DNA of 64,000 bases, taken from Chloroflexota bacterium. Its GTDB lineage: Bacteria > Chloroflexota > Limnocylindria > Limnocylindrales > CSP1-4. Of the stretch, positions 11,737 through 27,658 are shown in pieces. Position 1 is the first letter of the stretch. Each line of letters begins with the position of its first letter. The DNA is taken from assembly GCA_021802825.1 (NCBI GenBank), contig JAJZRG010000009.1:10010-74009 (forward strand), written 5' to 3'. A program made the translations under genes and the position numbers. The notes below the pieces were generated by a model, which had not been told where the DNA came from, did not search any database, and was given only the letters and a program-made list of their open reading frames with translations.

Positions 11737-12024
11737 TCAAGCGTCGACCGGTCGGCCGGCGTGATAGCCGGCCCGGTGGATCACCCGCATCAGCGTCCAC
11801 GCGTCCACGACGCCCGCATCGCCCCGCACATACGCGGTCTCGGTGGCAGGGTTCACGTACACGCTGCGGACGCCGGGTACGGCTGCCAGCGCGCGCTCGA
11901 GCGTCGTCGCGCCGGCCCCGCCGCATCCGAGGCCGAAAACCGGGATCCTCAACTGAAGCGAACCGTCCATGGACCCGATGGTCGCCCGCCAGGCTGAGAG
12001 CCAGGTGAGCCTCTCGTGAGACAT
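11737..12024 (-). CDS. Degenerate HMA-like domain protein (GLGCGGAG in place of GMTCxxC)
   Basis: LQLRIPVFGLGCGGAGATTLERALAAVPGVRSVYVNPATETAYVRGD follows the HMA beta-alpha-beta-beta-alpha-beta pattern with only one Cys. Alternative start ATG 11970 (MDGSLQL). Confidence 0.5.
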   Translation of the reverse strand: MSHERLTWLSAWRATIGSMDGSLQLRIPVFGLGCGGAGATTLERALAAVPGVRSVYVNPATETAYVRGDAGVVDAWTLMRVIHRAGYHAGRPVDA

Positions 12025-12062: not shown

Positions 12063-13469
12063 TCAGCTCGTTCGCGCGGGCAGGACGATCTCCGCGCGGG
12101 TGCCCCCGGCCGGTCGCGGCGACAGCGAGATCGTCGCGCCGTGGGCGTCGGCGATCCAGCGCGCGATCGCGAGGCCGAGGCCCGTCCCGGACGGGCGGAT
12201 CTGCCGAGCGCGGCGCCCGCGGTACAGGCGCTCGAACAGATGGTCAGCGTCCTCCGCGTCCACGCCGATCCCGGTGTCGTCGACGGTGACCACCGCCGCC
12301 CCGTCGCGCATCGTGAGGCGCGCCGTCACGCTGCCGCCCGGCGGGGTGTACCGGGCCGCGTTGTCCAGCACGATGCCGAACAGCTCGCGCAGGCGGTCGG
12401 CATCGCCCTCGACGACCACGGGCTCCACGGCGGCAACCGACATCCGGACGTGGGGCGCCGCCTGCCGATGCCGGCGGACGGAGTCCACGAGCAGCGCGTC
12501 GAGCTCGACGGGCTGGAAGCTGAGGCGGGCCCCGGACTCCGCCCGGGCCAACGAGAGGAGGTCGGCGATCAGGCGACCCATCCGCTCGGCCTCGTCGCGG
12601 GCGTCGTCGAGGATGGCCGACCGCTCGGCCTCGTCGAAGTCGGGCCGCGTCGCGAGGTCGAGGTTGGCGCGGATCACCGTGAGCGGGGTGCGGAGCTGGT
12701 GCGAGGCGTCGCCGAGGAACCGCTGGAGGGCCAGGTGGCTCGATTCGAGGGCGGCCAGCATCTCGTTGAAGGCCGCCGCGAGCTCGCCAACCTCGTCGGG
12801 CGTCCCAGGGCCCTCGACGCGCGCCCCGAAGTCGCCGGACAGGGCGATCGCGCGAGCCGTGTCGGTCACGTCCGCGACAGGCGCGAGGGCCCGGCGGGCC
12901 AGGAAGAGCCCCCCGATCAGGGCTAGCACCGTCACGGCCAGGCCCCCGAGCAGGAGCGCCAGGCGGACCGTGTCGAGGAGCGAGCGGAGCGGGCGCGTGC
13001 TGTCGGCCCACACGACGTATCCGAGGGTGCTCCCGTCGGGCCCGCGAACCGTCTGGACGGTGATCCGCAGCACGTCCCCGGGGACCGGATGCTCGTGGAT
13101 GGAGTGGCCGTTGTGGTCAGCCGCAGCAATGTCATCGGGGGTCACGGGCAGGGCCGGCTCCGCGGGGGGCGCCGAGTCGGCGATCTCGCGGCCCGAGGGG
13201 TCGAGCACGAGGATCCGGCCCCCGGTCGACGCGAGCTGCGAGACGAGCCTCGGCGACGGCGTCAGGCCCCCGGCAGCGTTGAGGTCCTGCGCGATCGCCC
13301 CGGCGGCGTGCTCCGCGTTCGCGACGAGGGAGGCGTCGAAGGAGGACTCGAGCTCCCGGCTCAGGACCACGTACATGCCGCCCCCGAAGGCGGCCAGCGC
13401 GGCGGCCAGCAGGCCCGTGTAGAGCAGCGCGAGCCGGACGCGGATCGTGAGCGGCGGGAGGCGGGTCAC
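12063..13469 (-). CDS. Sensor histidine kinase (HAMP-HisKA-HATPase) with His-rich extracytoplasmic loop
   Basis: GTG 13469 overlaps the RR stop (GTGA). Two TM helices flank a loop containing [17 protein letters not shown]. HisKA H-box [14 protein letters not shown]. HATPase N/G boxes ([23 protein letters not shown]). Confidence 0.9.
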
Positions 13470-14149
13470 CCGTCCTTGAGCACGTAGCCAGCGCCCCGGA
13501 CCGTGTGCAGGAGCCTAGGCTCACCGGCGGCCTCGAGCTTGCCGCGCAGGTAGCGGATGTAGACCTCGAGCACGTTGGACTCGCCCTCGAAGTCATACGA
13601 CCAGACGTGGTCCATGATCACATCGCGGGTCAGCACCTTGCGCGGGTGGCGCATGAACAGGAGCAGCAGGTTGTACTCGGTCGTGGTCAGCTCGATCCGG
13701 CGGTCGCCGCGGCGGGCCTCCCGGGCGTCCACGTCGAACTCCAGGTCGGCGAAGCGCAGGAGCTCGCCGGCCGGCGCCGACCGGCGGCGGAGCAGCGCGT
13801 GGACCCGCGCGAGCAGCTCCTCGAAGTTGAACGGCTTGACCAGGTAGTCGTCGGCGCCGGTCTCCAGGCCCTCGACGCGGTCCTTGACCTCGTCGCGGGC
13901 GGTCAGCATGAGGATGGCGACCTCGTCGCCCCCGGCGCGGAGGCGCCGCGTCACCTCGAGACCGTCGATGCCCGGCATCATGACGTCGAGGATGACCAGC
14001 TGGGGCAGATGCTCCCGGGCCTTGTCGAGGCCCTCCTCGCCCGATGCAGCCTCCACCACCCGGTACCCCTCGTAGGCGAGGCCCCGCCGGACGACGGTCC
14101 TGATCTTCGGGTCGTCGTCGACGACGAGGATGCGCGTGGGTTCGGCCAT
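13466..14149 (-). CDS. OmpR/PhoB-family response regulator
   Basis: ORF 13466..14221, ATG 14149 ([13 protein letters not shown]). Receiver domain (DVMMPGIDG, phospho-Asp context) plus winged-helix output ([30 protein letters not shown]...[11 protein letters not shown]). Confidence 0.9.
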
Positions 14150-14294
14150 GGCGTCGGGACGGCCTCCTGTGGTTCGTGCGCTTGGGCCCCGGTCCGCGCG
14201 GCGCGTCGCTGGTGCGGCCATCGTACGTTGCCGCCGCCACTGGCGACCTGCGGCCGGGCGGGTGCCGGCGCATGGGCACTGTGCCGCCCGAACC

Positions 14295-14320
14295 TTAGGA
14301 CGACATGAGAGCGGAATGAG
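14295..14320 (-). promoter_or_regulatory. Phased array upstream of the response regulator / kinase operon (possible autoregulation)
   Basis: Top-strand TTAG 14295, TGAG 14306, TGAG 14317. Lies 146-171 nt upstream of the RR start at 14149. Confidence 0.45.
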
Positions 14321-14493
14321 ACGGTCGCTGATCTCGCCGGGGGCGTCCGACGCGCCCTCGCCGGATCAGCGAAGCGACCCCCGCAGGCGTCGGCGTACGC
14401 CTGGGGGGGTCGCCCTGGCGCCAGTCGGCTCGTCCTCGCGAGCCTGGCGCCGTGGGTGCAGGTGGAAGAGCCTCCTCGGCCGGGTGGCCGTCG

Positions 14494-15132
14494 TCAGTGG
14501 GTGTGCGCCCCGGCGATCGGGCCGCCCTGGACGGACCGGCTGGGTGCGGCGCCCCCGGACGCGAGCTCGCCGACGCGGCGGGATGCCGCGCGGACCTCGC
14601 GGAGGAACCGCAGGGCGACCAGAGAGATGCCGAGCTGGATCACAGGCATGACGCTGTCGAGGTCGACGCCTTCGTCGAACGGGTCGCCGGAAATCAGCCA
14701 GGGGTGGCTGCCGTTGTTGGCGAGGTGGAAGTTGACGTTCAGGAAGATCGCGAGGAGGCCCGCGCCGATGACGATCGCCAGCAGCAGCGACTGGCGGTTG
14801 GCGCCGAGGCGATCCCAGCGTGCCCACCACAGCACGGCGACGGCGACGAGGAGCGCGCCGATGACGAGCTCGCCGACCATCACCAGTACCGCGAACAGCT
14901 GTGCGTTCGGGATGACCAGGCCGGTGAGGAAAGAGTCGTAGGGGCCGCTCAGGCCTTTCGCCGTGTCCGTGAGATTGTCGCCGAGGCCGCTCACCCAGTC
15001 AGGGCTCAGCAGCTTGGACAACCCGGACATGAACCACTCATAGCCGAGGAACGCCTGAATGGCGAGCAGGCCGGCCAGCAGGGGACGGGCCGCCCCCTGG
15101 AAGGTGACCCTTTGGGTGTCCTTGTCAGTCAT
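14494..15132 (-). CDS. DoxX-family membrane protein (copy 1)
   Basis: 212 aa, 4 TM helices. LLAIQAFLGYEWFMSGLSKL and VGELVIGALLV are typical DoxX-like patterns. Confidence 0.6.
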   Translation of the reverse strand: MTDKDTQRVTFQGAARPLLAGLLAIQAFLGYEWFMSGLSKLLSPDWVSGLGDNLTDTAKGLSGPYDSFLTGLVIPNAQLFAVLVMVGELVIGALLVAVAVLWWARWDRLGANRQSLLLAIVIGAGLLAIFLNVNFHLANNGSHPWLISGDPFDEGVDLDSVMPVIQLGISLVALRFLREVRAASRRVGELASGGAAPSRSVQGGPIAGAHTH

Positions 15133-15222
15133 CGTTATCTCCTGTCGGCTCCTCGGAGCCCGGGCAACCAGTTCGCGTTCCCGCTTGGCTCCGGCCGACA
15201 GGGTCAGTCTCGAGATCAGAGG

Positions 15223-15248
15223 TGAGGGCGGGATGAGCCCCGGCTGAG
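15223..15248 (-). promoter_or_regulatory. Phased YTCA-N7 array (x3) upstream of DoxX copy 1
   Basis: Top-strand TGAG at 15223, 15234 and 15245. Confidence 0.5.
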
Positions 15249-15588
15249 ACCTGCTGCGAGCAGTACCGACAATGCCGACCGCGGCGGTCCGCGAGCGCGG
15301 AGCCCGGCGCCGCTCGCCGCAGAGGTCCTCGTCGGTCGGGGCGCGGCTTGGTCGTCAGGCCGGCCGGGATGGGCGCCCCTGGCCGGGCACGAGGATCGTG
15401 CCCGCTGCATCGGGTCTCGCCGGGCCGCCACCTCGCACCGGGGATGAGCCTTCGCCACCCACCGCTGGCTGCGGCTTCGGCCCCTGCGGTTGGTCCGGAT
15501 CCATCGCCCCGCGCGCGGCGGCGTGCAGGTCGGCCAGGCGAATGGCGTCGCGGACGGCGTCGCGGCCCGAGTCGGGTGTCACGGGTTC

Positions 15589-17016
15589 TCAGCGCCCTGG
15601 CGTCGCCGCGGCGAACGCAGCGACGAGCGGCTGCGCAATCACGCCGGTCACGACGAGAACCGCCGCCGAGGCCGCCGTCGCGAACGCCGCCGCAGCTCCG
15701 AGCGTCCGCATCCGTCCCGCTGCCGCCGCGAAGTACACGGGCGCGAGCACCCGCACGTAATAGAAGATGGATATGACCGTGTTGGCGGCAGCGATCACCG
15801 CGAGCCAGGCGAGCCCGGCCTGGATCGCCACGACGAACAGCAGGAGCTTCGCCACGAACCCGGACAGTGGCGGGACCCCGATGAAGGACAGGAAGCTCAG
15901 TGCCAGCGATGCGGCCGCGGTCCGATGCTCGTTCGCCAGCCCCGGGTAGTCGGCGAGGGCAGTGCGCCCTCGCAGCGTCACGACGACGCCGAAGGCCGCT
16001 AGGTTCGCCGGAACATAGGCGGCGAGGAAGTAGAGGAGCGCCGCCATGGCGAGGTCGCTACGGCCGAGGGCGGCCACTGCCATCAGCCCGTAGCCCGTCT
16101 GCGAGACGGCCGACCAGCCGAGCAGCCGCCGGACGTCGTCCTGCCAGAGGCAGGCCAGGTTGCCCAGGGTCATGGTGGCAGCAGCACCGACAGCGACCAT
16201 CATCTCCCAACCGACCGTCGAGGGCGGCAGCACGAGGACGAGGCGGGCGAGGAACACGAACGCACCGACCTTCGGCACCGCCGTCAGGAAGCCTGCGATC
16301 GGGGCCGGCGCGCCTTGCGCGACGTCCGGCACCCAGACGTGGACCGGCACGGCGCCGAGCTTGAACATGAGACCGGCCATCACCAGGGCGACGGCCACGG
16401 ATGCCGCCGGCGAAGCGCTGTCCGGCAGGCCGGCGGCCAGGCGGTCGAGGGTGGTGGCCCCGGCAAGGCCATAGAGGGTGGCGACGCCCATCAGCATCGC
16501 CGCGTTGGCCAATGCCCCGACCAGGTAGTACTTGATCGCGGCCTCGGCCGCGGCCGACGACTTGCGGTGATAGGCGGCGAGGACGAACCCCGTGGCCGAG
16601 GACATCAGCATGGCCACGACGAGCTCCGTCAGCGCGGCTGCCCCCGCGAGCAGCATCGCGCCGAGCGCGCCGTACAGCAGCAGGGTGTAGTACTCGCCAT
16701 GCCGCGGGTCGCGCCGGAACCACGGGACGGAGAAGGCCACCGTCACACCCGTCGCGAGGAGGACGATGACCCGCGCGACCGCGGCGGCGGCGTCGTGGGC
16801 GTAGGTCCCGGCGAACGTCAGGCGCCCGGGCTCGCCGAGCGCGGGGATGGTGAGCGCGAGCGCCACACCCGTCGTGGCCAGCGCGAGCCAGGCAGCCCCG
16901 ACCTGGCGCCGGGGCCCGGCGGCCAGCGCATAGAGCAGCACCACGATGCCGCCGACCACCATGGCGAGCTCGGCGAGCACGTCGCCCGCCCAGCCCACCA
17001 TCGTGCCGATCGGCAT
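15589..17016 (-). CDS. nuoN: Complex-I-like antiporter subunit, NuoN homolog
   Basis: ORF 15589..17817, ATG 17016 (MPIGTMVGW) overlaps the nuoM stop by 1 nt (TGATG). 14-TM Mrp/Nuo antiporter-like pattern (KLGAVPVHVWVPDVAQGAPAPIAGFL, GWSAVSQTGY). Confidence 0.85.
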   Translation of the reverse strand: MPIGTMVGWAGDVLAELAMVVGGIVVLLYALAAGPRRQVGAAWLALATTGVALALTIPALGEPGRLTFAGTYAHDAAAAVARVIVLLATGVTVAFSVPWFRRDPRHGEYYTLLLYGALGAMLLAGAAALTELVVAMLMSSATGFVLAAYHRKSSAAAEAAIKYYLVGALANAAMLMGVATLYGLAGATTLDRLAAGLPDSASPAASVAVALVMAGLMFKLGAVPVHVWVPDVAQGAPAPIAGFLTAVPKVGAFVFLARLVLVLPPSTVGWEMMVAVGAAATMTLGNLACLWQDDVRRLLGWSAVSQTGYGLMAVAALGRSDLAMAALLYFLAAYVPANLAAFGVVVTLRGRTALADYPGLANEHRTAAASLALSFLSFIGVPPLSGFVAKLLLFVVAIQAGLAWLAVIAAANTVISIFYYVRVLAPVYFAAAAGRMRTLGAAAAFATAASAAVLVVTGVIAQPLVAAFAAATPGR

Positions 17017-18512
17017 CACCGTCGGCCCACGAACGGCCCGGCGAAGGCGTCGATGGTGCCGAGCAGCCACCCGGGCACCACGCCGATCAGGAGCACGAAG
17101 GCGCCGAGGACTCCCAGCAGCCCGGCCTCGCGCCGGCCGAGGTCGGGGAACTCGCGCCAGCGCTCGGGCAGCGCCCCCAGGAACAACCTGCCCAGCATCC
17201 GCAGGAAGAGCCCTGCGGTGATCACGATTCCCAGCAGGGCCACGGCGGCGAGCGCCGGGTAGACCGCGAGTGCCCCGACGAAGATCTGCACCTCCGCGAC
17301 GAACCCCGCGAGTCCGGGCAGGCCCAAGCTCGCGAAGGCGAGCAGGGCGGTGATCCAGGTCAGCGACCTCGCCCGCCCGAGCAGCCCCCCGTACGAGTCG
17401 AGGTCGTACGTGCCGCCGCGGGCGAGGACCGATCCGCTGACGAGGAACAGTCCCCCCGTGATCAGGCCGTGGGCGACCATCTCGACCGTCGCCCCGGTGA
17501 GGGCAAGCGCGCGGGCCGCCTCCTGGCCGGGGGCGGCGGCGCCGGCCACCGCGAGCCCGAGGATCACGTACCCCATGTGGTTGACGCTGGTGTAGGCGAT
17601 CAGCCGCTTGAGGTTGGTCTGTGCGAGCGCGACGAGCGCCCCGTACACGATCGAGATGACCGCCAGCACGGCGAGCGGCAATGACAGCTGCGCCCAGACG
17701 CCCGGGACCATGCTCATCAGGATGCGCACGAACCCGTAGGTGCCCATCTTGAGGAGGACGCCCGCGAGGATGGCAGAAGCCGGTCCTGGCGCGTCCACGT
17801 GGGCGGGCGGCAGCCATGTGTGGAACGGGACGATCGGGGTCTTGATGGCGAACCCGGCGAAGAACCCGGCGAAGACCAGTGCCGCGTAGACCCCGCCTCC
17901 GGCGAGCGGCTGCTGGCGGATGATCTCGGCCATGTCGAACGTGTGGGGGTCCGTGGCGAGATAGACGCCGAGGATGGCGAGGAGCAGGGGCAGCGAGCCT
18001 GCGAAGGTGTAGAGGAAGAACTTGAGGGCCGACCGCTGGGCGTCACCGTGGCCCCACGCGCCGATCAGGAAGTACATCGCCACCAGCGAGACGTCCCAGA
18101 AGACGAAGAACAGGAACAGGTCCAGCGCGAGGAACACCCCGACAGAGGCGCCCTCGAGGAACAGGATCAGCGCGTAGTAGGGGACCGGCCGGCCCCGCAA
18201 GTCGACGGGGTAGGCCACAGCGACTGTGAACACGAGCGCGGTCATCGCGGCGAGCGGCAGCGAGAGCCCGTCCACCCCGACTCGGTACGAGATGCCGAGC
18301 GTCGGGATCCACGGAACGGTCTCCACCTGCTGGAAGCCCGACGCGCCATCGAAGCGGAGCCAGGCCGCCGCCACCAGGACCAGCGGGACGACCGCCACGA
18401 TGGTCGCCGCAACAGCGAGCGCACGCGGACTCGCGCCGAGACCACGGCTTCTCGGGAGCAGCGCGAGCAGGGCCGCGGCAAGGATCGGGATGAAGATGGC
18501 GGCGGTGAGCAC
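17016..18512 (-). CDS. nuoM: Complex-I-like antiporter subunit, NuoM homolog
   Basis: C-terminal 498 aa of shadow-extended ORF 17016..20267. GTG 18512 (VLTAAIFIPIL) has an AGGAG SD. Motifs FFVFWDVSLVAMYFLIGAWG, KTPIVPFHTWLPPAHVDAP, YTSVNHMGY. Confidence 0.9.
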   Translation of the reverse strand: MLTAAIFIPILAAALLALLPRSRGLGASPRALAVAATIVAVVPLVLVAAAWLRFDGASGFQQVETVPWIPTLGISYRVGVDGLSLPLAAMTALVFTVAVAYPVDLRGRPVPYYALILFLEGASVGVFLALDLFLFFVFWDVSLVAMYFLIGAWGHGDAQRSALKFFLYTFAGSLPLLLAILGVYLATDPHTFDMAEIIRQQPLAGGGVYAALVFAGFFAGFAIKTPIVPFHTWLPPAHVDAPGPASAILAGVLLKMGTYGFVRILMSMVPGVWAQLSLPLAVLAVISIVYGALVALAQTNLKRLIAYTSVNHMGYVILGLAVAGAAAPGQEAARALALTGATVEMVAHGLITGGLFLVSGSVLARGGTYDLDSYGGLLGRARSLTWITALLAFASLGLPGLAGFVAEVQIFVGALAVYPALAAVALLGIVITAGLFLRMLGRLFLGALPERWREFPDLGRREAGLLGVLGAFVLLIGVVPGWLLGTIDAFAGPFVGRR

Positions 18513-18532
18513 GGGCTGGACTCCTGGGCGGT

Positions 18533-20431
18533 TTAGCGGGCCACGGCGAGGATGGCCGCGATCGCAGCCACGCCGACGGCGCCGATGACGTAGTAGTGGT
18601 GAGTGAGGCCGGTCTGGAGCCGACGGCTCTGGTGGCCGGCCATGCCGACCGCGCGCCCCGTGCCCTCGACCGAGCCGTCGACAACGGCCTCGTCCGCGCG
18701 CCGGGAGAGGCGGCCCGCCAGCATGCCGCCCGCGGCGGTCGCCATGACGAGGCGGTCGACGGACACGTCCACGCGAAGGGCCGTGACCGCGGAGGCGGCC
18801 CGCGCGATCCGCACGGCAGCCCGGACGCCCGCGTCGATGACGCGATCGTCGGCACGCGCCAAGGCGCAAGACAGGGCGAGCGTCGGCCGAACGACGAGCC
18901 GGGTCGCGAGCACCGGCAGGCCGAGCCAGTCCTCGACCATCGGCCTCGCGCGGAATGCCGCGAGCAGGCCTCGGCGCTCGAGCGCAGCAACGGTCGCCGC
19001 CCCGAGGATGAGCATCATCACCGCGGCCGCGACGCCCCACAGGGCGCCGTCGATCAGGACGCCTCCGGTCGCGGCCTCCACGATCGGCCTTGCGGGCGGC
19101 ACCCAGAGGGCGGCGAGGGCGACGCTCGCCCCCGCGAGGGCGCCGACACCGGCAAGCTCGACGCGCCCCGGCCGCCGCGCCAACTCGCCCTGGTGGCCAG
19201 GCCCATAGGCGAGGAGCAGGAAGCGGCCGGCATAGACGGCGGTGAGAAGGGCCGAGCCGAGGGCGAGCACCTCGAGTAGGGGACCGGCTGCGGCGACGAC
19301 CGAGAGGATCTCCTCCTTGCTCCACGCGGCGCCGAGCGGGGGCACGCCTGCGAGGGCGAGCGCGCCGACGGCCGCAGCGAGCGCGGGGCCCGGCAGTGCC
19401 CGGCCGAGGCGCCACCGCCGGATCTCGGACGTCCCCGCGGCGTGGATCGCGATCCCGGCGAGAAGGAAGAGCAGCGCCTTGAACGCGGCGTGGGTGACGA
19501 GCTGGGCGCCGGCCGCTGCCGTCGACCCGGCGCCGATCGCCATGAACATGAGCCCGTACTGGGCCGAGGTCGATGCGGCGAGGACGCGCTTGCCGTGCTG
19601 GTGGACCGCGGCGACGACCCCGCCGCCCAGCGCCGTCGTCAGGCCGATCGCCAGGATCGCCGGCAGGAACCAGGGCACGCCGACGAGCGACGGCGCGAGC
19701 CGGATGAGCAGGTACGCGCCGGCGGACACGAGCGTCGCGCTGTGGAGCAGGGCCGACACCGGCGTCGGGCCCGCCATGGCGGCGAACAGCCACGGGCTGA
19801 ACGGGACCTGCGCCGACTTGGCGGCAGCGGCGAGGAGCACGCCGGCCGCGATCATCTCCCTCCACGGCGACGCGGCGGCCGCCACGCCGTCGAATGCGAA
19901 CGCACCGGTCGCCGCGAAGGTCGCGCCCGCCGCGACATACAGCCCGAGGTCTCCGAGGCGCGTGGTGAGGAACGCCTGCGTGGCGCTGTCCACGTTCGTG
20001 CGGTCGCGCCAGCCGTGCCCGATCAGCGCCCAGGACGTGGCCCCGACGAGCTCCCAGCCGATGAGCAGCGAGATGAAGTCCCCGGCTGACACCAGGAGCA
20101 GCATCGCGGCGACGAACGCCACGAGCAGCGAGAGCAGCCGCGTCGGCTCGTCTTCCCCGGATGCGGCGGCGTACGCGATCACGGGCGCGGCGATGGCCGG
20201 CACGAGCACGACCATCACGCGCCCGAAACCCGCGACCGCGAGCGTGAGCCCGAAGGCCGGTCCCCACGCGATGCGCAATGTCGGCTCCGCCAGCGCCGAA
20301 GCGACGCCGAGGAGTGCGACGAGGATCAGGCCGACGACGGCCACCGGCCCGAGCGCGCGGGGACGCGAGCCGAGGCGAGCCAGCACCGCGGCGAGGAGCA
20401 GCGCGACGAGCGGCTGGGCGAGCGCGGTCAT
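18533..20431 (-). CDS. nuoL: Complex-I-like antiporter subunit, NuoL homolog with C-terminal lateral helix
   Basis: ORF 18533..20590, ATG 20431 (MTALAQPLV), ATGA overlap with the nuoK stop. Motifs IGWELVGATSWALIG and KSAQVPFSPWL. C-terminal amphipathic segment plus final TM helix (RRLQTGLTHHYYVIGAVGV). Confidence 0.9.
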   Translation of the reverse strand: MTALAQPLVALLLAAVLARLGSRPRALGPVAVVGLILVALLGVASALAEPTLRIAWGPAFGLTLAVAGFGRVMVVLVPAIAAPVIAYAAASGEDEPTRLLSLLVAFVAAMLLLVSAGDFISLLIGWELVGATSWALIGHGWRDRTNVDSATQAFLTTRLGDLGLYVAAGATFAATGAFAFDGVAAAASPWREMIAAGVLLAAAAKSAQVPFSPWLFAAMAGPTPVSALLHSATLVSAGAYLLIRLAPSLVGVPWFLPAILAIGLTTALGGGVVAAVHQHGKRVLAASTSAQYGLMFMAIGAGSTAAAGAQLVTHAAFKALLFLLAGIAIHAAGTSEIRRWRLGRALPGPALAAAVGALALAGVPPLGAAWSKEEILSVVAAAGPLLEVLALGSALLTAVYAGRFLLLAYGPGHQGELARRPGRVELAGVGALAGASVALAALWVPPARPIVEAATGGVLIDGALWGVAAAVMMLILGAATVAALERRGLLAAFRARPMVEDWLGLPVLATRLVVRPTLALSCALARADDRVIDAGVRAAVRIARAASAVTALRVDVSVDRLVMATAAGGMLAGRLSRRADEAVVDGSVEGTGRAVGMAGHQSRRLQTGLTHHYYVIGAVGVAAIAAILAVAR

Positions 20432-20733
20432 CCCTTCAGCTTCCGCAGCTTCTCGGTGATGTCCGCGCGCCTGACCCGGTAGACACCGGTGATGAGGGCG
20501 AAGCCGAGGGACATCTCGACCGCCATCACGGTCATGAACACGATGGCCAGCATCTGCCCGTCGGGGCTCCCGCCCGCAGCCCGCGCCCACATGGCGACGA
20601 GGACGAGCAGGGACCCGTTGATCATCAGCTCGATGCCCATCATCAGCATCACGAAGGACTGCTGGCTCAGCGCCCCGAAGACGCCGATGCCGAACAGCGC
20701 GGCTCCGACGACGAGGACGGCCTCAGTGGTCAC
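20428..20733 (-). CDS. nuoK: Complex-I-like subunit NuoK homolog
   Basis: GTG 20733 (VTTEAVLVVGAALFGIGVFGAL), GTGA overlap with the nuoJ stop. 101 aa, 3 TM helices. Conserved acidic residues in MGIELMING and AVEMSLG. Confidence 0.85.
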   Translation of the reverse strand: MTTEAVLVVGAALFGIGVFGALSQQSFVMLMMGIELMINGSLLVLVAMWARAAGGSPDGQMLAIVFMTVMAVEMSLGFALITGVYRVRRADITEKLRKLKG

Positions 20734-21296
20734 GCTGACGCCTCTTCGTCCGGCTGAAGCCCGGGCTCCTCGGAGCCCTCCGCGGCGTCGCCGTGCCGGC
20801 CGCGGGGCGCCGCAATCGCGATCGCCCCGACCATCGTGGCCAGGAGCGTGACGCCCGCCGTCTGGAACACCAGCATCGAGTTGCCGAGGAGCTCGCGCCC
20901 CAGCTCTGCGGTGGCCGCGGCAGGATCGGGCGCGGGTCGCGATGGCACTTCGCCCGAAAGCCCGACGCCGGCGATGGCGAGGAAGGCGATGACCCCGGCG
21001 ACGACGGCCGTGCGCGGCTGGTGGACCATCACCATCGGGTTGAGCCCGGCCGGGTTCATCATGTACATGACCATCACGATGGCCATCACGAGCATCTCGC
21101 CGGCCATCATCAGGATGAGCACCATGCCCAGGAACTCTGCCCCGAGGAGCACCATGATCCCGCCCGTGGCCGCGAAGGACGCCAGCAGGTAGAAGGCGGC
21201 GCGGACCATCGAGTCCGTCCGGAACACCCTGACGCCCGCCACGATCGCGACGAGCGAGAAGGCGGCGAAGCTGAGGTCGATCAGCGCTCCGGTCAC
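20730..21296 (-). CDS. nuoJ: Complex-I-like subunit NuoJ homolog
   Basis: GTG 21296 (VTGALIDLSF), GTGA overlap with the nuoH stop. AAFYLLASFAATGGIMVLLGAEFLGMVLILMMAGEMLVMAIVMVMYM fits the NuoJ TM pattern. Confidence 0.8.
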   Translation of the reverse strand: MTGALIDLSFAAFSLVAIVAGVRVFRTDSMVRAAFYLLASFAATGGIMVLLGAEFLGMVLILMMAGEMLVMAIVMVMYMMNPAGLNPMVMVHQPRTAVVAGVIAFLAIAGVGLSGEVPSRPAPDPAAATAELGRELLGNSMLVFQTAGVTLLATMVGAIAIAAPRGRHGDAAEGSEEPGLQPDEEASA

Positions 21297-22225
21297 AGGA
21301 GAAACGCCCCCGACACGAACACGTTGAGCAGGGCGAGGGGGACCAGCAGCACCCACGCGACGCCGACGAACCGCTCGATCCGCACCCGGGCCAGCAGGTG
21401 CTGGGCGCCGGCCATGACGGCCAGCAGCAACCCCGTCTTGAGCGCGACCCATAGCGGGCCGGGGAGGATCGGCCCAAAGTAGCCGCCGAGGAAGGCTGCG
21501 GCGCCGAGGGCGGCGACCGCCACCAGCATCGAGAGCCGCGCGACCTGCCAGAGCCATCGAGCCCAGCCCGCATCCTCCGCGGAGGTGCCTCCGGCAAGGT
21601 CATCACCGTCGGGGAGGTTGAGCGGGCCCCAGAACCCCACCGCGAGCCCCACCACGAGGTAGATCGGCAGGCCGAGCGGCTCGCGGACCACGTTCCACAG
21701 GCCGGCCTGCGCCTCGACGATTCGGACGATGGACAGCGACTGGGCCGGGAGGGCCGTCGCGAGCATCGCGAGGAGGAATGGGATCTGGAACGACAGCGCC
21801 ACGGCCCCGAACCGGTAGGCCCCGTGGAGCGGCAGGGTCGAGTTGGGCGACCAGCCGTGGAGGAACACCGCGATCATCACGAACGCCACCGCCGCCGAGT
21901 ACACGACGAAGCCGGTGTCCGGATCGGCCAGGGCGACGCCTGGACCGAGCGGCAGCAGCACCATCGCGAGCGCGGCCAGGCCCGCGAGAAGTGCGGGCGC
22001 CACGGCCCGCCCAGCCCCATCCGGGCGCTCGGTCGTAGTCGAGCCGGTGCGCGCCGCGAGCATCGCCCGGGCGACCGGCGCGGTGAGGAGCGGGAGTACC
22101 CGGATCGGGCGTCCGGCAACTACCGCCCCCGCGACACCGTCGCCGATCGCGAGCGCGAGTGCACCAACCGCGAGCAGACCGGCCACCGCGGCCGCGGCCG
22201 CGATCACCTCGAGCAGCGGGCTCAC
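21293..22225 (-). CDS. nuoH: Complex-I-like subunit NuoH homolog
   Basis: GTG 22225 (VSPLLEVIAAA), GTGA overlap with the upstream stop. 310 aa, 8 TM helices. Assigned as NuoH-like from its position between the Q-module remnant and nuoJ and from TM topology. Sequence is divergent. Confidence 0.65.
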   Translation of the reverse strand: MSPLLEVIAAAAAVAGLLAVGALALAIGDGVAGAVVAGRPIRVLPLLTAPVARAMLAARTGSTTTERPDGAGRAVAPALLAGLAALAMVLLPLGPGVALADPDTGFVVYSAAVAFVMIAVFLHGWSPNSTLPLHGAYRFGAVALSFQIPFLLAMLATALPAQSLSIVRIVEAQAGLWNVVREPLGLPIYLVVGLAVGFWGPLNLPDGDDLAGGTSAEDAGWARWLWQVARLSMLVAVAALGAAAFLGGYFGPILPGPLWVALKTGLLLAVMAGAQHLLARVRIERFVGVAWVLLVPLALLNVFVSGAFLL

Positions 22226-23508
22226 GCCGCTGTCACGCCGGCTAGCGCCGCCATCTCGTCGAGGTCGAGGTCGAGCGCCGCGATCGTCGCAAGCGCGTCC
22301 CCCCACTCGAGGCCCTCCACGAGGGCCGGGACGAACTCGAGCGCGCGCGCCGTCGGCGCGTCGCCCAAGGCGATCCGCCCTCGGGGGCTCTCGGTCGTCC
22401 CTGTGACCGTCGTCACAGCGCTGCCCGCGCGAGATGCTAGGTCGACGCTCTGCGACGCTTCGCCGAATCGCGCTCGCCAGACCGCGGCGACGCCATCTCC
22501 CACATCCGTGATCGGCGCGAAGCCGAGCGCGATATACGCGGGGTCGGCGAGCCGCTCGTCGTCGACACCGCCGCAGGCGCGCGACACCGGGCCCAGCCGG
22601 GCGTCCGCCAGCAGGGAGCGGCGGCGATCGTCGACGTTCGGCAGGGACCAGCGATAGACGCCGGTCCTCTGGACCGCGGTCGCAAAGCGGCCGACCGCCG
22701 CCGAGTCGCCGGGGGCGATCGTCCGGGCGAGCTCGAGGGCACGAAGGGAGATTGCTCGCAGGCCCTGAAGGCGGAGTGCCTCGGCGGCCCACCGGAGGTG
22801 CGCCCGGGCGCGCGCCATCTCAAGGTCCGCGATCGATTGCGGCTGCGTCAGCGCTCGCACGAACGCCGACCCCCCGGCGGCCTCTGAGGTACCCACCTCG
22901 GACCCCGTGACCCTCGCCTCAACAACGACGTCGCCGGAAACCCGCAGGTCAAGCTCGAGCCCAGCGGGGAGCGGCGCGAAGAATGGCCCGAGGCGGGTCG
23001 GCAGCACGTCGAGCCGCAGGCCGTCGCGGTCGGGCCCCAGCTCCGCCATCGGCCGCCCGTACGGGGTGCCCCCGGTCATGCCGCTGCCGCCCTGTCCGTA
23101 CGGCCCGACGCCGCGCCAGGTGGCTGGGTCCACGTCCGGCAGCAGGGCCGGCTCGGATGGCCTCCCGCCCAGAACGAGGTCGCGGAAGACAGCGCGCGTC
23201 GCGGCGACTGGGTCGGCGTCGGGGCCGATCCGCTCCGCGCCGGCCCCGGCCAGACCGTCGGGCGCCGATGCCCAGAGGACGGTCGCCCTCGGGTGGGGCA
23301 GCGCGTCGTGGACCCGAGCCGCCGCCTCGCCCAGACGCGGGCCGAGCTCACCGGCGACCAGGAGGATAGACGCCGCCCGGGGCGAGTCGACGAGCGTGAT
23401 GCCGTCGGCGAGGAGCAGGTCCTGCACCGCCCAGCGCATCCCTGCCCCCGCCAGCGCGAAGACGGGGGCATCGGCCGCTGCCGCCATCCGATGGAACACC
23501 GAGGTCAT
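22222..23508 (-). CDS. Fused NuoB-like / NuoD-like protein lacking Fe-S (N2) cysteines and quinone-site histidine
   Basis: ORF 22222..23790, ATG 23508 (MTSVFHRM), ATGA overlap with the nuoA stop. N-terminus: VFALAGAGMRW...SPRAASILLVAGE...LPHPRATVLWAS, versus NuoB FGLACCAIEM...SPRQADVMIVAG...MPEPKWVISMG. C-terminus: GPFFAPLPAGLELDLRVSGDVVVEARV, ARARAHLRWAAEAL, GPVSRACGGVDDER..DPAY, GDGVAAVWRARFGEASQS and ESPRGRI, matching NuoD blocks. Confidence 0.7.
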   Translation of the reverse strand: MTSVFHRMAAAADAPVFALAGAGMRWAVQDLLLADGITLVDSPRAASILLVAGELGPRLGEAAARVHDALPHPRATVLWASAPDGLAGAGAERIGPDADPVAATRAVFRDLVLGGRPSEPALLPDVDPATWRGVGPYGQGGSGMTGGTPYGRPMAELGPDRDGLRLDVLPTRLGPFFAPLPAGLELDLRVSGDVVVEARVTGSEVGTSEAAGGSAFVRALTQPQSIADLEMARARAHLRWAAEALRLQGLRAISLRALELARTIAPGDSAAVGRFATAVQRTGVYRWSLPNVDDRRRSLLADARLGPVSRACGGVDDERLADPAYIALGFAPITDVGDGVAAVWRARFGEASQSVDLASRAGSAVTTVTGTTESPRGRIALGDAPTARALEFVPALVEGLEWGDALATIAALDLDLDEMAALAGVTAA

Positions 23509-23861
23509 GTCCAGTCGAAGGCGCGCTCGCGCCACGCGTAGAGGACGCCCAGGAGCAGGATGGCGATGAACATGCCCATCTCGACCATCGCCACGATGCC
23601 CTCGCTGACGAACACGACGGCCCACGGGTACATGAAGACCATCTCCATGTCGAAGGCGAGGAAGAGGAGCGCCATCGGGTAGTAGCGGGCGTGGTAACGG
23701 CTCCACGCGTGGGCCGAGGGCGGGCGGCCGCCGGTGAACGGGACCCGCTCCGGCGCCGTCGCGCGAGCGTTGCGCGCCGTGCGCAGCCACGAGGCGAGCA
23801 CGGCGAGCAGGGCGGCCACCATCACCGAGAAGGCGACCGCGAGCGGGCCCAGATCCGTCAT
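23505..23861 (-). CDS. nuoA: Complex-I-like subunit NuoA homolog
   Basis: 118 aa, 3 TM helices. RYHARYYPMALLFLAFDMEMVFMYPWA matches the NuoA core (F..FD.E..F.YPWA). Confidence 0.85.
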   Translation of the reverse strand: MTDLGPLAVAFSVMVAALLAVLASWLRTARNARATAPERVPFTGGRPPSAHAWSRYHARYYPMALLFLAFDMEMVFMYPWAVVFVSEGIVAMVEMGMFIAILLLGVLYAWRERAFDWT

Positions 23862-23864
23862 GGC

Positions 23865-24023
23865 CTAGACGTAGTCGTCCGGCGACTCGCGGAAGCTGTC
23901 GGCGCAGTCCTGGCTGCAGAAGTAGTACGTGGTGCCGTTGTGCTCGATGGATGTGACCGCCTCCGACGGGCGGATCTTCATCCCGCAGACGGGGTCGGTC
24001 ACGGGCTGGTCGTTCTCAGGCAT
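23865..24023 (-). CDS. YHS-domain protein (52 aa), first gene of the complex-I-like operon
   Basis: ORF 23865..24116, ATG 24023 (MPENDQPVTDPVCGMKIRPSEAVTSIEHNGTTYYFCSQDCADSF). The stop lies 3 nt before the nuoA start. Confidence 0.8.
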   Translation of the reverse strand: MPENDQPVTDPVCGMKIRPSEAVTSIEHNGTTYYFCSQDCADSFRESPDDYV

Positions 24024-24039
24024 CGCTGTCTCCGGTGGC

Positions 24040-24059
24040 GCCCGGGCACGCGCCCGGGC
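24040..24059 (-). promoter_or_regulatory. GC hairpin in the 5' leader of the YHS/complex-I-like operon
   Basis: GCCCGGGC-ACGC-GCCCGGGC (8-bp stem, 4-nt loop), 17 nt upstream of the YHS ATG. A second small palindrome, AGGCACCGTGCCT, lies at 24073..24085. Confidence 0.3.
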
Positions 24060-24084
24060 TGGAGTCGACGTTAGGCACCGTGCC

Positions 24085-24110
24085 TGAACGCCACCTGAGC
24101 GTACGATGAG
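24085..24110 (-). promoter_or_regulatory. Phased YTCA-N7 array (x3) upstream of the YHS / complex-I-like operon
   Basis: Top-strand TGAA 24085, TGAG 24096, TGAG 24107. Lies 62-87 nt upstream of the YHS start at 24023. Confidence 0.5.
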
Positions 24111-24187
24111 CGGCAAGCCCGCGTCATCTGGCTACTCAGGCCACCTCTAGGCGACGACCGGCCGTGTGAGCTCGCCCGGCAGAAACC

Positions 24188-24928
24188 TCAGAACAGCGGT
24201 CCCGCGTGGCATGCGACGACGAACAGAAGGAATGCGGCAGCGGGCAGCCACTCATAGGGCAGGGCTGGGCGCCAGGCGTCCGCCCCCGACCGGTCGCGGC
24301 CGACCAGCCACGTGATCCGCTGATCCGCGACGCTGGCGAAAGAGGTCCCTCCGACACCGAGGCGATCCGCCTTGAGAAGGGCACGCGCGAGCGTCGACGC
24401 GCTTGACCCGGCGGCGAGGGCCGCGCGGTCTGCCTCGATCTCCAGCGCCGCGAGCCGATCCGCCACCGCGTTGCGGCCGGGCCCAACCGGCCCGAGGAGC
24501 ACGCCCCAAGCCTGCAGGGCGGCTGCCCGCAGGGGCGCCCGCGTCCTCCGATGGTGGTCCTCATGGCGTATGACTGCCCAGACCTCGTCGCCGTCGAGAT
24601 GCGTGAGGAGGGCATCGCCCACGTAGATGCGCGGCCGGAGCGCGCCAAGGACGAACGCGTGGCTCCCCCCGGCAGGCAGGACGCGTACCTGCACGCCACC
24701 AAGGTCGCTTGAGATCGCGCGTCTATCGAGTGCCCGGCCAGCCCGAGCATCGCTCAGGAGAATCCCTGTGGCTACGAAAGCCCAGACACCAAGCAGCAGC
24801 CCGCCGCCAACCTCGAGCGCCCGGACGGGGGCGCCAGAAGCATCGGGGAGGACGAACGCGCACATGGCCCACACCGCCGCGCCCAGAACCGGCAGCAGGG
24901 CGACGATATTGTGCGGACGAGGCCTCAC
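24188..24928 (-). CDS. BlaR1-like M56 membrane metalloprotease without extracellular sensor domain
   Basis: GTG 24928 overlaps the blaI-like stop (GTGA). TM helices plus IRHEDHHRR (HExxH). 246 aa, so no penicillin-binding-type sensor domain. Confidence 0.7.
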   Translation of the reverse strand: MRPRPHNIVALLPVLGAAVWAMCAFVLPDASGAPVRALEVGGGLLLGVWAFVATGILLSDARAGRALDRRAISSDLGGVQVRVLPAGGSHAFVLGALRPRIYVGDALLTHLDGDEVWAVIRHEDHHRRTRAPLRAAALQAWGVLLGPVGPGRNAVADRLAALEIEADRAALAAGSSASTLARALLKADRLGVGGTSFASVADQRITWLVGRDRSGADAWRPALPYEWLPAAAFLLFVVACHAGPLF

Positions 24929-25359
24929 GAGTCCTCGCCCTGCGCGAGACGCAGGAGTTCGGCGCGGAGCTCGGGATCGAGCGTGCTCAGCCGTTCGCCG
25001 AACTGGCGCAGGGCTGCGGCACCGTAGCGCGTGAGCACGGCGTCCACTGCCCGCCCCGCAAGGGCGTCAACCGACGAAGCCTCGTCCGCGACCGGCCAGT
25101 ATCGAAAGCCCCGCCCGGTCCGGCTGCGCTTGAGCAAGCCCCGTTCGTGGAGGCGCGACAGAATCGTCATCACCGTGGTGTAGGCAAGCTGGTGCGACTG
25201 CTGACGGTTCAGGGCGCCGGCCACCTCGGCGACGGTGGACGGACCCTGCGCCCACAGGACTCGCATGACCGCAGTTCCCAGTGGTCCGAGCATGGCCTCG
25301 ACGCCGGGCTGGCCGAGGTGCTCCTCATCCTGCTGCATCGCGCGACCATAGCACGGCAT
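24925..25359 (-). CDS. BlaI/MecI/CopY-family winged-helix repressor
   Basis: LGPLGTAVMRVLWAQGPSTVAEVAGALNRQQSHQLAYTTVMTILSRLHERGLLKR matches the BlaI N-terminal wHTH pattern. No C-terminal CxCxxxxCxC (CopY) motif. True start may be an internal ATG (25338 or 25293). Confidence 0.8.
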   Translation of the reverse strand: MPCYGRAMQQDEEHLGQPGVEAMLGPLGTAVMRVLWAQGPSTVAEVAGALNRQQSHQLAYTTVMTILSRLHERGLLKRSRTGRGFRYWPVADEASSVDALAGRAVDAVLTRYGAAALRQFGERLSTLDPELRAELLRLAQGEDS

Positions 25360-25422
25360 CTTGCCCTTGCCCGCGGTCGAGGCGGACCTCCGCCGGGACG
25401 CGGCCGCGCCATCGAGCCCATA

Positions 25423-25440
25423 TACTACTGGGGTGTCGTA
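25423..25440. promoter_or_regulatory. Candidate BlaI-type operator TACTAC-N6-GTCGTA in the blaI / ccmA divergent region
   Basis: TACTACTGGGGTGTCGTA: inverted half-sites matching 5 of 6 positions (TACTAC vs reverse complement TACGAC). It sits in an AT-richer patch 21 nt before the ccmA ATG and 64 nt before the longest blaI-like start. Confidence 0.4.
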
Positions 25441-25460
25441 ATTCGCCAGTCAAGGTCCCA

Positions 25461-26150
25461 ATGGTCACGTCCCCAGACCCATCGTGTCCTGGACAGCCGC
25501 TCGTCGGCTTGTCGGGCGCGACCAAGTTGTACGGCCCTACGGTTGCCATCTGGCGTGTGGACCTTTGGGTCTTCCGCGGCGATGCCGTAGGGATCGTCGG
25601 GGGCAACGGCTCCGGGAAGACGACGCTGCTCCGGGTGGTCGCCGGCGTCCTCGACCTCGACGCTGGCCTGCGGAGGGTGGCCGACGAGTCAGCGCTGGCC
25701 CGCCCGAGGATCGCCCTCCTCGGGCACCGGACAGGGTTGTACGGGGATCTCAGCCTTCGCGAGAACCTGCGGCTGGTCGCCCTCGCCTCCCACTCCAGGG
25801 CGGGCTGGCGAGATGAGGTGCTCGCCCGCCTGGACCTCCACGAGGTTGCGGACCTCCGCGTCTCTACGCTATCCGCCGGGACACGTCGGCGCGCAGGCCT
25901 GGCCCGGGCCCTCGTCTCGGATCCCGATCTGCTGATCGCTGACGAGCCGTTCAGTTCGGTCGACGCGCGCCATGCCGAAGCGATGGCCGACGCCATGCGC
26001 TCTTGGCATGCGTCAGGCGGATCGCTCCTCGTTGCCGGCCATGACGCGGCGACGCTGCTCCCTGTGTGCGTCCGGCTGCATCGGCTGTCCGGTGGCCGGC
26101 TCGTGTCGGCAGTAGACAGCGCCGCGCACACCGGTCGGTGCAGCGCATGA
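25461..26150 (+). CDS. ccmA: Heme exporter ATP-binding protein CcmA
   Basis: ORF 25281..26150, ATG 25461. Walker A GGNGSGKTT, signature LSAGTRRR, Walker B LLIADEP. First gene of the ccm operon. Confidence 0.85.
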   Translation: MVTSPDPSCPGQPLVGLSGATKLYGPTVAIWRVDLWVFRGDAVGIVGGNGSGKTTLLRVVAGVLDLDAGLRRVADESALARPRIALLGHRTGLYGDLSLRENLRLVALASHSRAGWRDEVLARLDLHEVADLRVSTLSAGTRRRAGLARALVSDPDLLIADEPFSSVDARHAEAMADAMRSWHASGGSLLVAGHDAATLLPVCVRLHRLSGGRLVSAVDSAAHTGRCSA

Positions 26151-27486: not shown

Positions 27487-27658
27487 CCTCCAGTTCGTCC
27501 TGGCCGGGTATCTCGTCGTTGTGGGGGGCGTTGCAGCTTATGCCGTCATGCTCCGGCGCCGGCTCGCCGCGGCGCGCATCCGGAGGGCAGCCATGCGTGC
27601 GTTCTCCGAGTCCACCAGCGACGACGCGGCACCCGTGCATGACGCCAGCCCCAAGTGA
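27479..27658 (+). CDS. ccmD: CcmD-like small membrane protein
   Basis: ATG 27479 (MSDLQFVLAGYLVVVGGVAAYAVMLRRRL). Single TM helix, located between ccmC and ccmE. Confidence 0.6.
   Translation: MSDLQFVLAGYLVVVGGVAAYAVMLRRRLAAARIRRAAMRAFSESTSDDAAPVHDASPK

Follow-up and report, generated by a model that had tools for sequence, protein, structure and literature searches.

Here we describe a nine-gene operon at positions 15589-24023, on the minus strand, of a 64,000-nucleotide (nt) stretch of DNA (the window; G+C 72%) from a Chloroflexota bacterium of the Limnocylindrales lineage CSP1-4 (GenBank assembly GCA_021802825.1, contig JAJZRG010000009.1, positions 10,010 to 74,009). The operon encodes a small YHS-family protein, homologs of all seven core membrane subunits of respiratory complex I (NuoA, H, J, K, L, M and N, by Pfam and NCBIfam), and a single polypeptide, here called the cap, in which NuoB-like and NuoD-like domains are fused. 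Judging from sequence, we see about an even chance that the operon encodes a complex I derivative without redox cofactors which acts as a redox-independent, metal-linked ion translocator. We infer that the nine products form one complex, that ions would be translocated without redox input, and that a metal would serve as substrate or trigger.

Gene content of the operon, its cap and its membrane arm

The operon consists of nine co-directional open reading frames (ORFs), and an independent gene call on an identical 72-kb ENA contig returned the same nine genes:

23865-24023, minus strand: first gene of the operon, YHS protein of 52 amino acids (aa), cytoplasmic, YHS/TRASH metal-binding family (PF04945, E=9e-16)
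23505-23861, minus strand: NuoA (ND3) homolog, 118 aa (PF00507, 1e-27)
22222-23508, minus strand: NuoB-NuoD fusion (the cap), 428 aa, without Fe-S or quinone ligands
21293-22225, minus strand: NuoH (ND1) homolog, 310 aa (PF00146, 2e-35; match starts at residue 74)
20730-21296, minus strand: NuoJ (ND6) homolog, 188 aa (PF00499, 3e-22)
20428-20733, minus strand: NuoK (ND4L) homolog, 101 aa (PF00420, 1e-15)
18533-20431, minus strand: NuoL (ND5) homolog, 632 aa (NF005141, 6e-91; protein residues 59-630 against model positions 72-611 of 615)
17016-18512, minus strand: NuoM (ND4) homolog, 498 aa (TIGR01972, 468 bits, cutoff 264)
15589-17016, minus strand: NuoN (ND2) homolog, 475 aa (TIGR01770, 310 bits, cutoff 333)

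The NuoL, NuoM and NuoN products are all PF00361 proteins and were told apart by the NCBIfam models; the NuoL model match reaches the C-terminal region, which in NuoL forms the lateral helix and the last transmembrane (TM) helix. All nine ORFs are intact and translationally coupled. This gene content and these coordinates, which agree with the ORFs, the Pfam and NCBIfam matches and the independent gene call, had been given in a preliminary description of the window made from its sequence alone. There, all junctions had been taken as overlaps of 1-4 nt or a 3-nt gap. This holds for YHS/NuoA (3-nt gap), for A/BD, BD/H, H/J, J/K and K/L (4-nt overlaps) and for M/N (1-nt overlap), but not for NuoL and NuoM, which are separated by 20 nt. 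The same description had noted the absence of NuoC, I, E, F and G, and this stands: none lies inside the operon, where the genes abut, and E. coli NuoB, CD, E, F, G and I used as probes in six frames found no match in the 64-kb window. The gene call on the ENA contig also placed a 75-aa ORF after nuoN (15355-15582, minus strand), which is probably not a gene, being of low complexity (rich in Pro, Gly, Ala and Arg) and present in no related locus.

The cap itself matched no Pfam or NCBIfam model, and its more than 700 close homologs, from metagenome-assembled genomes of Limnocylindria and other Chloroflexota, are all unnamed or 'hypothetical'. Its assignment as a NuoB-NuoD fusion, already proposed in the preliminary description, comes from its homologs, from the Protein Data Bank (PDB) and from structure comparison. 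PF00346 (NuoD) is matched by 32/34 cap homologs and PF01058 (NuoB) by 15/34. Against the PDB, the family profile matched NuoB/PSST/MbhJ chains at positions 38-85 and NuoD/NdhH/49-kDa chains at positions 213-420. Moreover, Foldseek with an AlphaFold2 (AF2) monomer model of the cap (pLDDT 86, pTM 0.86) returned only 49-kDa/NuoD/NdhH/HycE chains; HycE and MbhL are distant structural or sequence matches of the cap only. The assignment does not draw on hhalign of the cap profile against the single E. coli NuoB and NuoCD sequences, which gave weak local matches (E about 1e-3). The resulting layout is a NuoB-like flavodoxin-type domain (residues ~1-120), a Gly-rich loop (123-167) and a NuoD-like domain (~166-428). 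The loop between the two domains, WRGVGPYGQGGSGMTGGTPYGRPMAELGPDRDGLRLD, forms a 40-residue stretch that is almost wholly invariant (peptide sequence in the cap: GPYGQGGSGMTGGTPYGRP), and it is disordered in the AF2 monomer model (pLDDT <50). Mean column identity over the alignment of 34 cap homologs (A1) is 65%.

No Cys column is conserved among 73 cap members (maximum occupancy 9/73), 28 of which contain no Cys at all, and 'FGLACC' of E. coli NuoB aligns with 'FAxAGxG' in the cap. Because no Cys column is conserved, the alignment indicates that the cap cannot bind cluster N2. Similarly, 'GPHHPSMHG' of NdhH corresponds to 'GPFFxxLPxG', placing a Pro at the position of the quinone-ligand His (His38 of Thermus thermophilus Nqo4), and the ~37 residues that would carry the loop with Tyr87 (Nqo4) are absent. 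With the N2 Cys, the quinone His and Tyr, and, within the operon, NuoC, I, E, F and G all missing, complex-I-style electron transfer to quinone would not take place. A fixed redox metal centre in place of N2 is also unlikely, because no His/Cys/Met ligand set is common to the cap subfamily of the window and that of actinomycetes described below; H67 of the window protein is Trp in actinomycetes, and the invariant residues common to both subfamilies are Asp, Arg and Gly. The cofactor-less stub of the preliminary description is thus borne out by the missing Cys, the His38 to Pro change and the lost Tyr87 loop.

The membrane subunits have their closest relatives in complex I. The best PDB matches of NuoM are complex I NuoM chains (3e-79), compared with 2e-36 for Mbh and 3e-31 for Mrp, and the best match of NuoH is E. 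coli NuoH (6e-29), with complex I/NDH chains only and no MbhM or HycD. These matches place the membrane subunits in the complex I lineage and not in the Mrp or Mbh lineages. We then considered residue conservation in 49-75 orthologs per subunit, using E. coli numbering. NuoL retains E144, K229, H254, K342 and K399 in 49/49; NuoM retains K234, K265, H322, H348 and E407, with the TM5 Glu (E144) replaced by Asp in 52/52; and NuoN retains K217, K247 and K395. The membrane glutamates E36 and E72 of NuoK are retained in 65/65 and the equivalents of NuoA D79 and E81 in 75/75. In NuoH, R148, E228 and R293 are retained and E220 has become Asp, whereas E36, R37, D63 and E71 are not retained and the first ~70 residues, the quinone-cavity part, are divergent. 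With the Lys/Glu/His chain of the antiporter-like subunits conserved, and likewise the carboxylates of NuoK, NuoA and NuoH, proton conduction through the membrane arm has most likely been retained. Leu in TM5 of NuoN, Asp in TM5 of NuoM and Met in NuoJ are family-wide and might mark an altered ion path or stoichiometry.

Distribution, actinomycete relatives and known complexes

Scanning one genome for each GTDB species yielded 80 loci, and the nine-gene order occurs in about 75 loci from at least five phyla. The order YHS-A-BD-H-J-K-L-M-N is constant wherever enough DNA is present, and YHS opens the operon in almost every locus of this type; all these loci come from metagenome-assembled genomes of uncultured organisms. 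Carriers are found in Chloroflexota (Limnocylindria, Tepidiformales and Dehalococcoidia), in Actinomycetota (Acidimicrobiia, Thermoleophilia, Gaiellales and Nitriliruptoraceae), in Gemmatimonadota, and in single bins of Acidobacteriota, 'Cyanobacteriota' and Myxococcales. Within 10 kb of about 80 related loci there is no NuoC, E, F, G or I, bar two stray matches: in locus L053 a NuoB-like ORF, which lies at the end of the contig and runs on the other strand, and in L060 a NuoF-like ORF. The combination of YHS, B-D fusion and missing NuoC, I, E, F and G, which the preliminary description had singled out for comparison between genomes, is therefore conserved in about 75 loci. An exhaustive profile search extended the family to 1512 representatives at 50% identity, 748 of them with E<=1e-10. 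By contrast to the operon, its flanks vary: when 5275 flank ORFs were clustered, no family occurred in more than 13/82 loci, and the commonest neighbour was a response regulator and kinase pair (13/82). In three loci from long-read MFD assemblies (L071, L073 and L076) the frames of the cap, NuoH, NuoL and NuoN are broken into 2-3 overlapping ORFs, probably through assembly indel errors and not as real pseudogenes.

Four weaker loci have the order A-BD-H-J-K-L-M-N without YHS and include those of the cultured Nocardiopsis sp. NRRL B-16309 and Salinactinospora qingdaonensis. Cultured actinomycetes contain more than 1700 homologs of this cap type, each bearing the annotation 'hypothetical protein', with carriers in Nocardiopsis, Thermobifida, Streptomonospora, Saccharomonospora, Amycolatopsis, Pseudonocardia, Humibacter, Streptomyces and Streptosporangium. 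An hhalign comparison of the window family (A1) with the actinomycete cap (A2) gave a probability of 99.85 and E=1e-30 over 357 aligned columns, and both share the core motif PMA(D/E)xGxDRDGLxLD. Exactly where the window family has its invariant Gly-rich loop, the YHS-less caps carry a variable insert rich in His, Asp, Gly and Met (for example HGDMDMDMD, GHEGMDHGSHEGMEHG and HDHEGHDHHMHGGGM), followed by the common core GGMxMPGGxPMA(D/E)RGxDRDGLxLD. The inserts are of low complexity and up to about 150 residues long (loci L079, L080 and L082; proteins P0121-P0240; A2 columns ~130-315).

The YHS-less gene order has been reported before. In Salinispora, nuoA, a hypothetical protein gene and nuoHJKLMN were described as a partial NDH-1 operon within a 'marine adaptation' gene set (Penn & Jensen 2012, PMC3314556), and the same partial operon was reported in Kocuria flava S43 (PMC6002675). 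In marine Streptomyces, nuoAHJKLMN were listed as marine adaptation genes (PMC6676996), and deep-sea Streptomyces carry the partial operon beside a complete nuoA-N operon and a nuoABCHIJKLMN operon (PMC8622039). These papers propose a role in Na+ or H+ pumping and report marine enrichment (PMC3314556, PMC6002675, PMC6676996). The extra gene is treated in them as homolog-less; its B-D nature, the cofactor loss and the metal context are absent and no experiments are given (PMC3314556, PMC6002675, PMC6676996, PMC8622039). From identical synteny, the hypothetical proteins of Salinispora and Kocuria would be homologs of the window cap. This 'partial NDH-1 operon 2' thus resembles the window operon in its gene order (nuoA, hypothetical protein, nuoH-J-K-L-M-N) and in having no other nuo genes, and differs in that the window type adds YHS in front and has the invariant Gly-rich loop. 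The window type also occurs in other lineages (Chloroflexota, Acidimicrobiia, Thermoleophilia, Gemmatimonadota and others), and all carriers to date are uncultured genomes.

The preliminary description had regarded the system as undescribed. This does not hold for the YHS-less form, known since 2012 from marine actinomycetes; the nature of the cap and the metal link were not recognised there. Our literature search, which covered few subscription-journal papers, found no B-D fusion, no link between YHS and complex I, no Ehr-type description and no report from Limnocylindria. The cofactor-free NuoB-NuoD cap, the complementarity of YHS and His/Met inserts, the metal context and the breadth of the family were likewise not found in the literature searched, although a description in a subscription journal is possible. 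The system is the YHS-type variant of a cluster that comparative-genomics papers noticed and never analysed or tested.

We compared the operon with known members of the complex I superfamily. With respiratory complex I, including the 11-subunit NDH-1 (Nuo11), it shares the seven membrane subunits, the proton-path residues and the NuoB and NuoD folds. It differs in lacking NuoC, I, E, F and G, the N2 ligands, the quinone His and Tyr and the TM5 Glu of NuoN, in having YHS, and in the fusion of NuoB to NuoD without NuoC; known NuoBCD fusions retain NuoC and cofactors (PMC4758237). Mrp (Mnh/Pha/Sha) likewise combines redox-independent antiporter-like subunits with a NuoK-like subunit and offers a model for the arm as a secondary antiporter. 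However, Mrp has no NuoH, NuoA or NuoB/NuoD-like cap, all of which the window operon has, and it has MrpB, E, F and G, whereas no Mrp-specific Pfam family is matched by the nine window products and Nuo gives much better scores than Mrp for the window L, M and N. The group-4 [NiFe]-hydrogenase relatives (Mbh, Mbx/Mbs, FHL/Hyf, Fpo and Ehr) resemble the operon in being reduced, with a small peripheral module on a NuoH-like anchor. As far as is known, these relatives, probably including Ehr, keep the NuoB-type [4Fe-4S] cluster and NuoI/NuoC-like subunits. Their membrane subunits are of Mbh/Mrp type and those of the window operon are of Nuo type; moreover, the window fusion has no conserved Cys, and no NuoI homolog occurs in the window or within 10 kb of related loci. 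Some group-4 relatives have lost the NiFe ligands in the NuoD-like subunit (PMC4758237). Lastly, cyanobacterial NDH-1MS, with CupA/CupS on NdhD3/F3, is a complex I scaffold with a non-redox, metal-dependent accessory function (PMC6981117). Unlike the window operon, NDH-1MS keeps a full redox-active Q-module, and its accessory proteins, which have no relation to YHS, are placed on the distal antiporter subunits.

Putative metal-binding elements, CTCA boxes and proposed function

The YHS motif DPVCxM...YyFCSxxC, comprising C13, C36, C40 and Met15, is conserved in 58 orthologs, and the protein is predicted to bind metal. A P1B-ATPase, CzcA/CusA RND pump, multicopper oxidase, CDF transporter, cupredoxin or DUF305 gene lies within 10 kb in 26 of the 57 loci with at least 12 kb of sequence, a raw count without a matched control in which the cupredoxin and multicopper-oxidase matches may include unrelated cupredoxin folds. 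Metal genes also adjoin the YHS-less operon of cultured actinomycetes (L087, 15866-17194, Humibacter; L084, 8-2317; L086, 4710-7200). In Saccharomonospora viridis a P-type ATPase, an ArsR-type (ArsR/SmtB) repressor and two DUF305 proteins are encoded upstream of the operon; in Amycolatopsis, ArsR and a P-type ATPase are directly upstream. In Humibacter an 88-aa YHS protein and a P-type ATPase with an HMA domain are encoded directly downstream and convergently, with ArsR and a CDF transporter upstream. As a separate observation, DsbA and VKOR genes lie downstream of the Saccharomonospora operon, and dsbA is on the Kocuria 'marine adaptation' gene list (PMC6002675).

A shared promoter element adds to this picture. 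The operon is preceded by a phased array of boxes that recurs through the window:

24085-24110, minus strand: three YTCA boxes with 11-nt phasing, CTCAtcgtacgCTCAggtggcgTTCA, about 62-87 nt upstream of the YHS start codon
2374, 8876, 8887, 9148, 11995, 15223, 24085, 32948, 34669, 37912, 48386, 58065, 62668, 62739 and 63470: starts of the 26-nt matches in the window

The pattern YTCA-N7-YTCA-N7-YTCA, mostly (G)CTCA, occurs 15 times in the window against 0.01 expected from shuffles, so that the array noted in the preliminary description is real. All 15 copies lie just upstream of genes, in 13 promoter regions. These precede the YHS-nuo operon, genes for a multicopper oxidase, a cupredoxin, a 98-aa YHS protein, two DoxX-like proteins, an ICMT-like methyltransferase, an M48 peptidase, an M23/LysM peptidase, an MCRA-family hydratase and an EAL protein, and two genes of unknown product (a 179-aa protein and the gene at 63520). 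In 12 related loci, mostly from Limnocylindria, the box lies about 80-210 nt (mostly about 100) upstream of YHS, with 0.005 expected per locus. An 11-nt phasing is typical of OmpR/PhoB-type regulators. The array is accordingly a candidate site for a response regulator of this type, and the set of box genes looks like the copper/envelope-stress regulon of an OmpR-type regulator.

Given that YHS is present in one type and that the YHS-less type has an insert at the same position of the cap, a metal-binding element would thus be supplied at the cytoplasmic face either in trans (YHS) or in cis (His/Met insert). Taken together, five independent lines link the system to metal: YHS as first gene, the inserts, the 26/57 neighbourhoods, the neighbours in cultured species and the CTCA regulon. 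The copper-gene surroundings and metal link of the preliminary description find support in the nearby copper genes, the neighbourhoods and the box regulon.

We propose the following working model. The whole membrane arm (NuoA, H, J, K, L, M and N) would be closed on the cytoplasmic side by the single NuoB-NuoD polypeptide and accompanied by YHS. Protons would flow down the proton-motive force via L, M and N and be exchanged for another cation at the junction of NuoH/A/J/K and cap, making the complex a secondary cation/proton exchanger, Mrp-like in principle. The only remaining energy source is an ion gradient, and such an exchanger is the most economical model. The Gly/Met loop of the cap and YHS may bind cytoplasmic metal ions, a job which in actinomycetes would fall to the His/Met/Asp-rich insert, and the bound metal would either enter the ion path or gate the arm. 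The operon would be switched on within a two-component-controlled regulon marked by the 11-nt-phased CTCA box. There is a mitochondrial parallel: the deactive form of complex I, whose redox domain is uncoupled, carries out Na+/H+ antiport (PMC3464577). The ion or proton translocator favoured in the preliminary description accords with redox ligands that are lost and a proton path that is retained. Judged on sequence, the ion exchanged may be a metal cation, Na+ or K+, or the metal may be a mere gate. A bolder form of the model, which we hold to be unlikely, has the complex as a new class of heavy-metal exporter driven by the proton-motive force. In it the former quinone cavity of NuoH and cap would be the entry for Cu+ or Zn2+, YHS (or in actinomycetes the His/Met-rich loop) would supply the metal, and proton influx via NuoL, M and N would drive extrusion.

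Several observations weigh against a metal-linked translocator. The canonical proton path has changed in places: 44/49 NuoN sequences have Leu for the TM5 Glu (E133), and 67/68 NuoJ sequences have Met for Y59. A YHS/TRASH domain can also be a zinc ribbon with a structural role only. Among the actinomycete caps the His-rich inserts vary, and they all but disappear in some (P0127, L081). About half of the loci lack a metal gene within 10 kb, and conservation across loci extends to none of the flanking genes. For a metal ion passing through the former quinone cavity there is no precedent.

A rival reading without a metal role is that of a plain Na+ or K+/H+ antiporter for salt or pH homeostasis, in which YHS and cap would be structural or assembly factors only. 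The pumping role and marine enrichment already proposed (PMC3314556, PMC6002675, PMC6676996) speak for it, as do antiporter-like subunits whose conserved Lys and Glu make them the same modules as in Mrp, the Na+/H+ exchange of deactive complex I (PMC3464577) and the loci without a nearby metal gene. However, the 'marine' correlation is weak, homologs being common in soil and freshwater (Amycolatopsis, Saccharomonospora, Limnocylindria and Gemmatimonadota). Moreover, a plain antiporter leaves unexplained the near-obligatory YHS, the His/Met-rich inserts, the P1B-ATPase/CzcA/ArsR neighbours and the co-regulation with copper proteins; we regard it as rather unlikely. Decay of a duplicated nuo operon into a non-functional remnant would account for the loss of cofactor ligands and several subunits, and for a fusion protein that falls below all Pfam and NCBIfam thresholds. 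Yet the ORFs are intact and translationally coupled, the same order is kept in about 75 loci of several phyla, the family comprises 1512 cluster representatives, the cap alignment has 65% mean column identity with a 40-residue near-invariant stretch, and the proton-path residues are invariant. Decay therefore has an almost negligible probability, and the local decay for which the preliminary description had allowed is ruled out by the size of the family and its conservation over phyla.

It is improbable, too, that the complex is still a redox pump, whether with Cu or another metal bound by YHS or cap in place of N2 or with electrons delivered by outside partners (NuoC/I/EFG, cytochrome b, cupredoxin or DoxX). 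Copper is redox active, and YHS and Met/His motifs bind Cu in other proteins. Genes for cytochrome b, cupredoxins and DoxX occur in the window, some with a CTCA box, and actinomycete genomes with the partial operon also hold a full nuoA-N operon (PMC3314556, PMC8622039). On the other hand, the two cap subfamilies have no His/Cys/Met ligand set in common, the quinone ligands are gone, and the NuoD surface that normally binds NuoC/NuoI sits in a much reduced domain. No candidate partner is a conserved neighbour, so that the redox coupling to cytochrome b, cupredoxins or DoxX suggested in the preliminary description finds no support; the box common to nearby genes points to co-regulation rather than a complex. 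About equally improbable is a conformational machine that is driven by, or senses, the proton-motive force and would load or unload metal on YHS, or open a proton leak in response to metal. The invariant loop, which is probably mobile (pLDDT <50), occupies the place at which site chemistry is coupled to the arm in complex I, the YHS protein encoded alongside is small and looks diffusible, and neighbouring exporters (P1B-ATPases, CzcA) are possible clients. This proposal is purely inferential and without precedent in the complex I superfamily, and the same sequence data fit the metal-linked translocator equally, sequence being unable to distinguish the two.

There is continuing debate over how quinone-site chemistry in complex I is coupled to proton pumps at distances of up to about 200 Å. 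In the present case evolution has deleted every redox cofactor and retained the whole arm, its charged chain and a NuoB/NuoD cap with an invariant loop. If active, the complex would show what arm and cap do without electrons and would provide a cofactor-free system for structural and transport work; should the exporter form be true, it would be a natural experiment in the long-range coupling of complex I without electron transfer. The family is large (about 1500 clusters at 50% identity) and occurs in the cultivable Saccharomonospora viridis, Amycolatopsis, Nocardiopsis and Streptomyces, so that these proposals are directly testable. If the metal-linked translocator is correct, the 'marine adaptation' genes nuoAHJKLMN would be re-read as metal homeostasis genes. 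Thousands of 'hypothetical proteins' would gain a function, as would genes mis-annotated as NADH dehydrogenase subunits in metabolic reconstructions of Chloroflexota, Acidimicrobiia and Gemmatimonadota.

Candidate regulators and other genes of the window

The remaining features that touch on the operon or its putative regulon are these:

13466-14149, minus strand: OmpR-family response regulator (Response_reg and Trans_reg_C), candidate regulator of the boxes from its context
12063-13469, minus strand: histidine kinase (HAMP/HisKA/HATPase_c), candidate from its context
11487-11780, minus strand: second YHS protein, 98 aa (PF04945, 4e-10), having a separate CTCA box; its gene closely follows that of the histidine kinase
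25557-31613, plus strand: complete cytochrome c maturation cluster (ccmA, B, C, E, F, a thioredoxin-like gene and ccmH)
46538-48211, minus strand: MCRA-family fatty-acid hydratase (PF06100, 7e-167), with a CTCA box
53879-55210, plus strand: cyclopropane-fatty-acid synthase-like methyltransferase, right after a CopA-type ATPase

The second-best NCBIfam match of the response regulator, just behind NblR, is the heavy-metal CztR/SilR/CopR model (236 bits, cutoff 279). The window histidine kinase has no Met-rich sensor segment, only a short HNGHSIHEH stretch. A BlaI-like gene (PF03965, 5e-22) and a weakly matching M48/M56 peptidase gene lie upstream of the operon. The preliminary description had placed a BlaI/BlaR1-like pair beside the operon; both genes are indeed there, but the pair is not among the recurrent neighbours of related loci. 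The BlaI-like repressor was considered as a CopY-type copper sensor and set aside, its C-terminus having no CxC...CxC motif. A leader hairpin upstream of YHS, also part of the preliminary description, was rejected, since its minimum free energy is no better than that of shuffled sequence in this 72% GC DNA (-31.2 against -27.9±3.2 kcal/mol, z=-1.03). Rfam found no riboswitch or other known RNA at E<=1 in 13000-27000, and searches for sigma-70 promoters and terminators gave nothing above chance.

The ORF spanning 57025-58260, the EAL-domain gene, has a weak YHS-like match. Because lipid-modifying enzymes (the hydratase and the cyclopropane-fatty-acid synthase-like methyltransferase) lie in the same island, the gene content points to membrane remodelling as a component of this stress response. 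The ccm cluster separates the operon from the multicopper oxidase gene; it lies upstream of the BlaI-like gene and is divergent from it.

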